Positions 48,291 to 50,538 of a stretch of DNA of 64,000 bases are shown in pieces. The stretch's first letter is position 1. Every line of letters begins with the position of its first letter. Source of the DNA: Clostridia bacterium (lineage in GTDB: Bacteria; Bacillota; Clostridia; TANB77; CAG-508). The position numbers and the translations under genes are program-made. The stretch covers positions 33,631 through 97,630 of the forward strand of contig JAFQQR010000034.1 of the NCBI GenBank assembly GCA_017410505.1. Reading direction: 5' to 3'. The notes beneath the pieces are model-generated. The model did not search any database. It was not told the origin of the DNA and was given only the letters and a program-made list of their open reading frames with translations.

Positions 48291-50018
48291 GTGTATATGA
48301 AAAAAATCAGAGATGTAAAAGAGCTTGAAAATATCAAAGAAATGATTTACAATTCAGCAAAAAAATATGCTGATCACATAGCATTTATAGTAAAACATCA
48401 AGATGGAAAAAGTAAAACATATGAAAACATAACATATAAATCATTTTTAGAACAAATTAATTCATTAGGTACAAAATTATATGATATGGGATTTAAAAAT
48501 AAAAGAATAGCTATTGTCGGACGAAATAGATATGAATGGGCATTAGCTCATTTAACAAATCTTTTGGGTGGAATTATATCAATTCCTTTAGACAAGGATT
48601 TACCAATTGATGAATTAGAAAATTCATTAATTAGAAGTAAAGCAGATGCTATTGTATTTGATGAAAAACAGGTAGAGAAAATAGAAGAAATTAAAAGTAG
48701 AAACAATACAAATTTAATAGAATATATTTGTATGTCTAAATTAGCAGGATATAAAGATATTAACACTTTAAAAGAAGAAGGAAATAAATTATTAGAAGCG
48801 GGAAATAAAGAATATGTTTCTGCAAAAATAAATGATAATGAAATGAATATACTATTATTTACATCAGGTACAACATCAAAATCAAAAGCAGTAATGCTAT
48901 CACAAAAAAATATTGCTTCAAATGTATGTGCAATGCAAAGGGTTGAAGGAATATATGACACAGATTCTAATTTAGCATTTTTACCATTTCATCATATATT
49001 TGGTTCAACAGCTCTAATTGTAATGCTAGCATGTGGAGTACGAACATCTTTTCCGGATGGATTAAGATATGTAGCTCAAAATTTAAAAGAATATGAAGTA
49101 TCTATTTTTGTAGGTGTTCCGCTTCTTATAGAAGCAATCTATAATAAAGTTGAAAAAGAAATAGAAAAGCAAGGAAAAACTAAACTTATAAATACAGCAA
49201 CAACAATAAGTAACGGATTATTAAAATTACATATAGATATAAGAAGAAAAATATTCAAACAAGTAATAGACCAATTAGGTGGAAAAATGAGATTTGTCAT
49301 TTCAGGAGGAGCCCCATTAGATCCACGAGTACAAAGAGGATTTAATGACTTAGGAATTAGAATGGTTCAAGGATATGGTCTTACTGAGACATCTCCAGTT
49401 ATTTGTGCAGAAAATGATTTTAAAACAAGAACAGGTTCTATAGGGGTTCCTTTGGATAATGTTACTGTTGAAATAGTTAACAAAGATGAAAATGGAATAG
49501 GAGAATTAAGGGCAAAAGGACCTAATGTGATGTTAGGATACTATGAAAATGAGGAAGAAACAGCAAGAGTTTTAAAAGATGGATGGTTCTATACAGGTGA
49601 TTTAGGTTATATGGATAAAGACGGTTTTATATTTATTACAGGAAGACAAAAAGACATGATTGTTCTTAAAAATGGTAAGAAAGTATTCCCTGAAGAATTA
49701 GAAACTTTAGTAAATAGAATAGATTTAATAGAAGAGTCTATGGTGTTTGGTATGCCAGATAAAATTGACAAAAATGATATTAAGCTTTCAGTTAAGGTAG
49801 TTTATAATAAAGATGAAGTTCAAGAAAAATATGGAGATATTTCAGAAGATGAGATTAGAAATATTATTTGGGATAGAATTAAAAACGAAGTTAATGCTAC
49901 TGTCCCAAGATATAAGCACATTGTTAATATGATTTTAACTGATAAAGAATTAATTAAAACTACTACTAAAAAAGTTAAAAGAAATGAAGAAATGAAAATA
50001 ATTTTAAAAAATGCTTGA
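48291..50018 (+). CDS. Long-chain fatty acid-CoA ligase (AMP-binding)
   Basis: FTSGTTSKSK, QGYGLTETSP, GPNVMLGYY, TGDLG and GRQKDMI motifs. Confidence 0.9.
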   Translation: MYMKKIRDVKELENIKEMIYNSAKKYADHIAFIVKHQDGKSKTYENITYKSFLEQINSLGTKLYDMGFKNKRIAIVGRNRYEWALAHLTNLLGGIISIPLDKDLPIDELENSLIRSKADAIVFDEKQVEKIEEIKSRNNTNLIEYICMSKLAGYKDINTLKEEGNKLLEAGNKEYVSAKINDNEMNILLFTSGTTSKSKAVMLSQKNIASNVCAMQRVEGIYDTDSNLAFLPFHHIFGSTALIVMLACGVRTSFPDGLRYVAQNLKEYEVSIFVGVPLLIEAIYNKVEKEIEKQGKTKLINTATTISNGLLKLHIDIRRKIFKQVIDQLGGKMRFVISGGAPLDPRVQRGFNDLGIRMVQGYGLTETSPVICAENDFKTRTGSIGVPLDNVTVEIVNKDENGIGELRAKGPNVMLGYYENEEETARVLKDGWFYTGDLGYMDKDGFIFITGRQKDMIVLKNGKKVFPEELETLVNRIDLIEESMVFGMPDKIDKNDIKLSVKVVYNKDEVQEKYGDISEDEIRNIIWDRIKNEVNATVPRYKHIVNMILTDKELIKTTTKKVKRNEEMKIILKNA

Positions 50019-50303
50019 CATAATAAGTAAACAATGCTATAATTATAACAGTTCAGTTAGTTTAAAGCTATTCAAAAACTAAATGTAGATAAGAAGGAGA
50101 TTTATATTTAGGTAAATCTCGTATCCCATTCACTCCACAATCACAATAAAAATTAAGTTTCAACAACAACACACAAAAGAAAAACTAATTGGACAAGGAA
50201 GGCATAAACTAAAAGGATAGAATGAAAAAATGATATATATGGTGGGATACAAGATTTAATTTATAGCTAAACTCTACTTAGTACTTTTAAGTAGAGTTTT
50301 TTA
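50015..50303 (+). ncRNA. Candidate structured RNA, copy 1 (~250 nt), with promoter and terminator
   Basis: TTGACA(50015)-17-TATAAT(50038). No ORF of note. Three long-range helices. Terminator AAACTCTACTTA/TAAGTAGAGTTT plus T run. Confidence 0.65.
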
Positions 50304-50340
50304 TTTTTACATAGTTTTTTCTGATAGTTGAAGATTATAC

Positions 50341-50538
50341 TTGACATAATTCATAAATTTTGGTATAATTTGGTTAGTTCAATTAGTATATGCTATAAGA
50401 TAGATTGAGTATTCCTCACAAGATAAGTACATTTTAAACAAAATTAAACTAATTGAACAAAAGAAAAAACAAAAAACAAGGAATACAGATTTATTTTATA
50501 GCAAAAACTCTACTTAGTATTTTTAAGTAGAGTTTTTT
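50341..50538 (+). ncRNA. Candidate structured RNA, copy 2 (~160 nt), with promoter and terminator
   Basis: TTGACA(50341)-17-TATAAT(50364). Same three helices with compensatory changes and a near-identical terminator. Confidence 0.65.

Follow-up and report, generated by a model that had tools for sequence, protein, structure and literature searches.

Two adjacent paralogous non-coding RNA genes with a covarying fold downstream of an AMP-binding ligase gene in gut Clostridia

Two transcription units and their distribution

The window analyzed here is a stretch of 64,000 nt from the genome of a Clostridia bacterium (assembly GCA_017410505.1, contig JAFQQR010000034.1, positions 33,631 to 97,630). 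It matches a scaffold of 80 kb from a gut metagenome. Within positions 50015–50545 of this window we found two tandem transcription units on the + strand, unit A (50015–50302) and unit B (50341–50538), which are two paralogous non-coding genes with promoters and terminators of their own and a fold that is under selection. Upstream lies a gene for a 575-aa AMP-binding, acyl-CoA-ligase-like protein (open reading frame (ORF) 48291–50018), and directly 3’ of unit B, on the opposite strand, a fragment of the gene for dipicolinate synthase subunit B (dpaB) that covers the C-terminal part of the protein. In relatives an intact convergent dpaB abuts the last RNA unit.

An earlier note on this DNA had called both promoters perfect TTGACA-17-TATAAT promoters. 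Both indeed match at 12 of 12 positions, with a TG extension, and they are the only sites with this score in the 2-kb region scanned; seven other candidates scored 9/12. Intrinsic terminators were detected at 50269–50299 and 50503–50537 (two detected versus 0.4 expected from shuffles), and, as the note had held, they are nearly the same, with 97% identity over 37 nt. The -35 hexamer of unit A contains the TGA stop codon (50016–50018) of the ligase gene, an overlap retained in all homologs of the A type, which also keep the -35 element, the spacing and the -10 element. The promoter of unit B is likewise kept in homologs of the B type. A sequence scan gave no terminator-like site between the ligase stop codon and the unit A terminator at 50269–50299, so transcripts reading through from the ligase gene must include unit A.

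The two units resemble each other most at their ends: the first 11 nt differ by a single base and the last 37 nt are as similar as given above for the terminators, whereas the centres differ in length and in sequence. In structural terms unit B is unit A without one hairpin (H) and with shorter linkers.

Homologs were sought on contigs encoding the nearest relatives of the ligase (88–95% identical) and relatives of dpaB. Close relatives, all of them uncultured gut Clostridia, yielded another 12 distinct copies, which brings the total to 14 sequences, and every copy is located between the AMP-binding ligase gene and dpaB. A-type units occur at the related loci L090/L091, L092, L095, L096 and in the L108–L116 group, B-type units at L095, L097, L098 and L099–L101. 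Both types stand in tandem in L095, as in the window, and only the A type was found in L090, L092, L096 and the L108 group. The spacer between A and B measures 38 nt in the window (50303–50340) and about 120 nt in L095 (2197–2315) and in bovine, food-production and terrestrial variants; the difference falls on the joint 50319/50339, where the variants carry 98 extra letters. In L097 (2431–3411 in locus orientation) and L098 transposase-like genes, one of them with HTH_28/HTH_32 domains, lie directly upstream of the unit B promoter and occupy the place where unit A or the spacer otherwise sits.

The family is patchy even within this narrow clade of low-GC gut Clostridia. It is absent from L093/L094, L118 and L119, although these relatives are 88–89% identical. 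No homolog emerged from BLAST and motif searches when 80 syntenic loci of GTDB species representatives were examined. The representatives all belong to uncultured Clostridia, among them Clostridium sp. CAG:575, 28_17 and 26_22; their ligases are at most 87% identical to that of the window, and they carry a plain terminator and an intact convergent dpaB in that position. The units are present in gut and terrestrial metagenome runs, and contigs of other runs, when compared with the locus, include diverged copies from sheep, bovine, food-production and terrestrial samples. One contig of run X3 seemingly skips 50134–50242, which would amount to a deletion of the 3’ arm of helix P1 (described below); we did not count it, since the letters between its two sides are not available and the linkers have diverged beyond alignment. 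In the unit-less loci L005 and L006 (about 7710–7790) and L093 (about 4722–4790) a different conserved sequence directly follows the ligase stop codon. Its sequence is GGGACAGTAGGGACAGTCC(G/A)AATTTGTCTCACAAATTT, or GAGACATTTGGGACAGTGCAATTTTGTCTCACAATTT in L093, with GAGACA/TGTCTC as an inverted repeat.

Searches outside this position remained negative. With nhmmer profiles of the A and B types, neither the window nor the approximately 1.3 Mb from related loci yielded any additional copy, and a blastn comparison with collections of phages and plasmids was likewise without a match. Viral contigs were scanned with three patterns (promoter plus 5’ box; 3’ module; P1a-gap-P1b), and all matches obtained were attributable to chance. 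A scan of metagenome contigs with the pattern TATAGC-N1-2-AAACTCTACTTAG gave two chance matches in coding DNA; the Joint Genome Institute collection is without this clade. With all copies at a single locus and none found elsewhere, the family is a single-locus element.

The earlier note had not recognized the family, and indeed none of the whole 64-kb window matched Rfam 15 at gathering thresholds. When E values up to 10 were allowed for 49900–51100, the sole match was SpF19 (RF02430), a small RNA (sRNA) of Streptococcus, with 23.5 bits against a gathering threshold of 60 and E = 0.16. This alignment (50244–50309) essentially covers the terminator hairpin, with the interior of the model largely deleted, and the units are not members. 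Membership in the OmrA/OmrB family (RF00079) was rejected for want of an Rfam match. The same applies to 6S RNA; moreover, the 5’ end of our RNAs pairs with the middle of the RNA and not with its 3’ end, and the units are absent from close relatives, unlike a housekeeping RNA. A riboswitch or other cis-acting leader was dismissed because both units end in a terminator and the next gene, dpaB, is convergent in relatives and a fragment in the window. Nor do the units qualify as a sponge of the Csr/Rsm type, with 0–5 GGA per RNA: only the GGA in the loop of hairpin H is conserved, and B-type RNAs have 0–1, located inside a helix. We conclude that the units form a new, lineage-restricted family of bacterial small RNAs that is not in Rfam.

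The units had also been described as ORF-less. No + strand ORF of at least 30 aa lies within them, and on neither strand do the 14 homologs have an ORF in common, whether judged by position, frame, length or sequence. The short ORFs present in homologs are mostly without a ribosome-binding site (Shine-Dalgarno).

A composite helix and a paired 5’ end

The fold of both RNAs is a long composite helix (P3, lower P2 and upper P2) that closes a large loop. We re-examined the coordinates and sequences of the helix arms in the earlier note and found all of them correct; in addition, a second conserved 6-bp helix (TAAATC/GATTTA), here called lower P2, continues P2 downward. In unit A, P2 spans 16 nt with 94% complementarity. 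In unit A the helices meet in a three-way junction, whereas unit B has one continuous helix, built by the stacking of P3, a short A-U helix and lower P2. For the predicted transcripts the minimum free energy corresponds to z-scores of -3.0 (A) and -7.3 (B) relative to dinucleotide shuffles. All features are listed in Table 1.

Table 1. Features of units A and B and of the adjoining dpaB fragment (window positions)
Feature	Position	Strand	Remarks
Unit A promoter	50015–50043	+	-35 TTGACA 50015–50020, 17-nt spacer, TG-extended -10 TATAAT 50038–50043; 12/12 match
Unit A RNA, about 252 nt	50051–50302	+	predicted 5’ end from -10 spacing, 3’ end from T-run
Unit A P1, 5’ arm (GUUCAGUUAGU)	50051–50061	+	extreme 5’ end of RNA; partner 50184–50194, -11.0 kcal/mol
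Unit A P3, 5’ arm (AGCUAU)	50066–50071	+	partner 50263–50268
Unit A hairpin H	50079–50111	+	A-type only; 12-bp stem, purine-rich loop (AAGAAGGAG)
Unit A P2, 5’ strand	50113–50128	+	lower UAAAUC 50113–50118, 2-nt internal loop, upper GUAUCCCA 50121–50128
Unit A linker L1	50129–50183	+	G-poor, A/C-rich; length and sequence vary among homologs
Unit A P1, 3’ arm (ACUAAUUGGAC)	50184–50194	+	within P2 loop
Unit A linker L2	50195–50242	+	A-rich; contains GAAUGAAAAA motif, semi-conserved in A-type
Unit A 3’ strands of P2 and P3	50243–50268	+	P2 upper UGGGAUAC 50243–50250, P2 lower GAUUUA 50253–50258, P3 AUAGCU 50263–50268
Unit A intrinsic terminator	50269–50302	+	13-bp stem, 5-nt loop, T-run
Unit B promoter	50341–50369	+	TTGACA 50341–50346, 17-nt spacer, TG-extended TATAAT 50364–50369; 12/12 match
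Unit B RNA, about 162 nt	50377–50538	+	predicted ends
Unit B P1	50377–50387/50448–50458	+	
Unit B P3	50391–50396/50498–50503	+	
Unit B single helix	50391–50406/50488–50503	+	P3, A-U rich extension and lower P2
Unit B upper P2	50409–50416/50479–50486	+	
Unit B linkers	L1 50417–50447; L2 50459–50478	+	
Unit B terminator	50505–50535	+	
dpaB 3’-end fragment, 195 nt	50542–50736	-	outside the RNAs; duplicate of 60490–60684, 92% identity

We aligned the 14 sequences by segmenting them according to structural elements, such that each sequence is reproduced exactly; passage of this alignment through MAFFT, with gaps written as N, altered one row only (+3 columns). With the P1 boxes held unpaired, all 14 sequences fold individually into P3, a two-part P2 and the terminator, with H in addition in the A type only, so that the 12 further homologs share the architecture and bear out the note’s view of the units as paralogs with the same order of helices. 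Standard pairs occupy 98.3% of 709 cells of the alignment, compared to 32–48% when the 3’ partners are slid by 1–3 columns.

The earlier note had pointed to compensatory changes in P2 between the two units and had named covariation among homologs as a test of its proposal. Changes on both sides of a pair were found for 10 pairs (30 cells), and none of 500 shuffles reached the observed percentage of pairing, the number of double changes or the covariation score. Seven of the double-changed pairs are among the eight pairs of upper P2, where the sequence was rewritten with pairing preserved: it is GUAUCCCA/UGGGAUAC in unit A of the window and in L095A, GUGUUUUC/GAAAACAC in L090, GUGCUUU/AAAGCAC in L092, GCAUUUU/AAAAUGC in the L108 group, GUAUUCCU/AGGAAUAC in unit B of the window and GUAUUUCU/AGAAAUAC in L099B. 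P2 and P3 together account for nine pairs with double changes, P3 changing from GCUAU/AUAGC to GCCAU/AUGGC and GUCAU/AUGGC, and the terminator stem shows one swap from A-U to G-C. H and lower P2 are 100% paired and show only single changes compatible with G-U pairing; six pairs of H vary on one side. The core GAAGG of the H loop is retained in all A-type homologs. Because homologs rewrite the helix sequences yet keep the pairs, selection maintains the fold. It is the + strand that folds, since on the opposite strand the numerous G-U pairs would turn into A-C mismatches; this fits RNA and not duplex DNA. On the uncurated MAFFT alignments RNAalifold recovered P3, P2 and the terminator for the B type, and P1, H and the terminator for the A type, in which MAFFT had misaligned the 3’ strands of P2.

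In P1, nucleotides 1–11 of the RNA show complementarity to a box of 11 nt within the loop of P2. This complementarity is intact in 14/14 sequences (-11.0 to -11.9 kcal/mol), and the 5’ arm of unit A is identical in all eight A-type sequences. An 11-bp partner for the 5’ end, with G-U pairs allowed, appeared by chance in 1.3% (A) and 0.5% (B) of shuffles. Seven pairs of P1 are invariant and four vary on one side (U-A to U-G, G-U to A-U) with pairing preserved. Of the covarying, pseudoknot-like fold claimed in the note, covariation therefore holds for P2, P3 and the terminator, whereas P1 is 100% paired but shows one-sided changes only. Since P1 shares no nucleotides with P2 or P3, it cannot act as a classical either/or switch, leaving coexistence in a pseudoknot or pairing in trans. 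The complementarity between the two RNAs also extends beyond the 11-nt box: the first 27 nt of unit A (50051–50077) are 78% complementary to the L1/P1 3’ arm region of unit B (50432–50458), and judging from this match the A and B RNAs could cross-pair head-to-loop.

The linkers on either side of the loop box vary in length, L1 from 23 to 62 nt and L2 from 20 to 67 nt, with a minimum of about 20 nt. They agree with the earlier description as A/C-rich and variable in that L1 is A/C-rich and G-poor and L2 A-rich. In every lineage L1 contains 0–6% G and L2 54–85% A. We found no conserved motif in L1 beyond this composition, and linker sequences are unconserved save for GAAUGAAAAA in A-type L2.

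Expression, proposed function and alternatives

Only one RNA run, the gut metatranscriptome X24, was found to contain the sequence. When compared to window positions 44000–53500 it gave one substantial match, a 194-nt contig with a word depth of 8.3 that is located wholly inside unit A: 174 nt aligned to 50067–50240 with about 95–97% identity, and the contig extends about 17 nt further, to about 50257. The flanking genes were represented only by spurious pieces of 35–54 nt. This pattern is what an abundant sRNA beside weakly expressed genes would give, and not what would be expected from DNA carry-over. None of the three outcomes by which the earlier note would have been refuted (no transcription, a match to a known Rfam family, no covariation among homologs) came about, but the evidence for transcription is thin.

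We propose that A and B are independently transcribed, paralogous sRNA genes of an undescribed family confined to a narrow clade, and that their products act as stable trans-acting regulators, a reading to which we assign a probability of about one half. The RNAs would be abundant and form a twin pair like OmrA/OmrB, with the sequence-invariant parts (5’ box, loop box and, in A, the H loop) serving as functional contact surfaces. Pairing of P1 would form a pseudoknot that ties down the 5’ end, with L1, G-poor and no shorter than 23 nt, and L2, A-rich and no shorter than 20 nt, as flexible tethers that let the loop box reach it; the minimum lengths of the linkers are consistent with a tethering role. 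In this arrangement P1 may protect the 5’ end against a 5’-exonuclease of the RNase J type and also control how accessible the seed is. By its layout, unit A would in addition be a type I 3’-untranslated region (UTR)-style sRNA that supplies the only terminator of the ligase gene.

Known systems resemble the pair in part. OmrA and OmrB of Enterobacterales are encoded by adjacent same-strand sRNA genes that arose by duplication; their ends are nearly identical, their centres are distinct and the conserved 5’ end is the seed (PMC2588501). A and B likewise are adjacent same-strand paralogs with common 5’ and 3’ ends and a divergent centre. They differ in having neither sequence nor Rfam similarity to OmrA/OmrB, in belonging to another phylum, in being 2–3 times longer, in possessing a covarying helix of roughly 20 bp and in that the box to which their conserved 5’ end is complementary lies inside the same RNA. 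[quoted passage not shown] Both features are found in unit A, whose promoter overlaps the ligase stop codon and whose terminator is, by the sequence scan, shared with the ligase gene. They are inapplicable to unit B, which is free-standing behind the unit A terminator, and relatives keep the ligase without an sRNA.

Stem-loops at the 5’ end protect Bacillus mRNAs from RNase J1, and exonuclease-resistant RNA (xrRNA) pseudoknots of flaviviruses block 5’-to-3’ exonucleases. Judging by complementarity, the extreme 5’ ends of A and B would be similarly base-paired, into a loop closed by a long helix. A bolder proposal builds on this: the invariant 5’ box may thread into the loop closed by P2 and P3, giving a knot-like RNA resistant to 5’-to-3’ exonucleases and thus a bacterial counterpart of xrRNAs, or A/B heteromers joined head-to-loop may scaffold or sequester a protein on G-free tethers. 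We regard this as doubtful. The topology, with the 5’ end pairing inside a loop of 54–140 nt, bears a superficial likeness to the xrRNA ring.

Several points weigh against A and B being trans-acting regulators with a tethered 5’ end. The alignment was hand-curated around the structure and thus leans towards it, and several of its rows are near-identical strains, leaving about nine independent lineages. No double compensatory change was seen in P1 among the 14 sequences, so that P1 is conserved rather than covarying, and its two boxes could be conserved for a reason other than mutual pairing. The family is missing from species with 88–89% identical flanking genes and is therefore dispensable or young. 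The X24 evidence consists of one unstranded assembled contig from a close variant and not from the window strain, unit B was not detected in this metatranscriptome, and the ends of both transcripts were placed by sequence signals. Finally, the conserved boxes found no site better than those of shuffled seeds among 54 translation-initiation regions, a set limited to the window and hence to a few percent of the genome.

We weighed five rival explanations, each of which is less well supported than a pair of trans-acting sRNAs. RNAs of the Csr/Rsm sponge type bear many GGA motifs, and CrcZ/CrcY and RsmY/RsmZ occur as sets of paralogs. A and B share with CsrB/RsmY/RsmZ and CrcZ/CrcY the paralogous copies, the strong expression signals and the long single-stranded A-rich stretches, and A a GGA hairpin loop, so they might be decoys whose A-rich or G-poor linkers and GGA-bearing H loop titrate Hfq, CsrA or S1. 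The composition of both linkers given above fits such a role, as do the absence of structure in L1 in all homologs, the free drift of linker sequences with their composition kept, L2 of unit B (AAAAGAAAAAACAAAAAACA) as a run of AAN/ARN triplets, the GAAGG, with GGA in every copy, displayed in the hairpin loop and the strong, constitutive-looking promoters that suit an abundant titrator. However, there is no array of repeated GGA or CA motifs: the single conserved GGA loop is confined to the A type, the L099 B-type lineage is without any GGA, and the homologs have no A-rich motif that is conserved in the same register. What A and B conserve most are the two mutually complementary P1 boxes, which a sponge leaves unexplained, and we therefore consider a decoy function possible but not probable. 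Alternatively, the units could be a cis-acting 3’ module of the ligase mRNA that stabilizes its 3’ end and provides insulation from the convergent dpaB, with the internal promoters being secondary. The obligatory presence of unit A in ligase read-through transcripts would agree with this, and unit-less relatives have a plain bidirectional terminator at the same place; there, however, the terminator alone insulates. Every copy keeps its own perfect -35 element, 17-nt spacer and -10 element, including unit B behind the unit A terminator, selection on P2, P3, H and P1 goes far beyond the needs of a 3’ stabilizer, and the metatranscriptome contains unit A without the ligase gene, all of which makes a cis module unlikely.

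An orphan ligand-binding RNA (a trans-acting aptamer resembling a riboswitch) or a catalytic RNA, with a pocket built from the pseudoknot and the three-way junction, would account for the pseudoknot fold and for junction nucleotides (UCAAAAA, GGUAAAUC and AAGAUUUAAUUUAU) that are fixed in sequence while the helices covary. We hold this to be quite improbable: even with E values up to 10 allowed, none of the known aptamer or ribozyme families matches, the terminator is followed by a convergent gene and no downstream gene is there to regulate, unit B is conserved although it lacks the three-way junction, and the very narrow, patchy distribution is unlike that of metabolite sensors. That same patchiness among close relatives, the tandem duplication, the insertion sequence transposase directly upstream of unit B in L097/L098 and a 9.9-kb island inserted beside the units in the window could point to a selfish or DNA-level element, such as a miniature mobile element or a recombination site, whose inverted repeats mimic RNA helices. 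Against this stand the single locus of all copies, with none in the rest of the 64-kb window, the about 1.3 Mb of related loci or the phage, plasmid and viral collections, the strand specificity that the G-U pairs impose on the structure and the promoter and terminator that bracket each unit exactly; such an element is very improbable. We give next to no credence to a type I toxin-antitoxin or small-protein locus in which a short ORF on either strand is a real gene. Unit A does contain a hydrophobic 30-aa ORF on the reverse strand (50160–50252) besides other short ORFs, but it is a by-product of the A-rich linker and lost in relatives, no ORF is conserved in the 14 homologs, and most are without a Shine-Dalgarno sequence.

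Riboregulation in uncultured low-GC gut Clostridia, which are common in human and animal guts, is little known. The family described here was discovered from sequence alone and has promoters, terminators, a covariation-supported fold and a trace of expression. It illustrates how sRNA genes arise, duplicate, lose a domain (B without H) and vanish quickly while neighboring proteins stay 88–95% identical. Its invariant, self-complementary 5’ box is an unusual design and could reveal how sRNAs are stabilized or gated in Firmicutes. Without a target or phenotype it represents a new family and not a new principle.

Further observations in the neighborhood

The dpaB fragment behind unit B is one of two 195-nt direct repeats (50542–50736 and 60490–60684) that are 92% identical, lie 9948 bp apart and both represent the 3’ end of dpaB. 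They bracket a segment (50737–60489) that is absent from L090, L092 and L095, where dpaB and pepF directly follow the RNA units. Its genes specify a Ham1-like NTPase, a Y-family polymerase (IMS) accompanied by a YolD-like protein, an LCM methyltransferase, two helix-turn-helix regulators (one AraC/GyrI-like), a BspA-type leucine-rich repeat surface protein, a sortase and a NUDIX protein. The segment has the appearance of an island that was inserted here, and no integrase was detected in it.

The dpaB gene of the window (60490–61077, - strand), like that of L095 and L002, has an ORF that stops after 138 aa (...NNGLSRKC*), with about 57 conserved C-terminal codons continuing in another frame; more distant relatives encode proteins of 192–214 aa. 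The apparently interrupted gene could be a frameshifted pseudogene or a recoding site. Upstream of the ligase gene, a 701-aa ORF (46111–48216) encodes an apparent fusion of a MATE efflux transporter with a cytidylate-kinase-like domain (Pfam MatE and Cytidylate_kin2 in the precomputed annotation), and this fusion is conserved in relatives.

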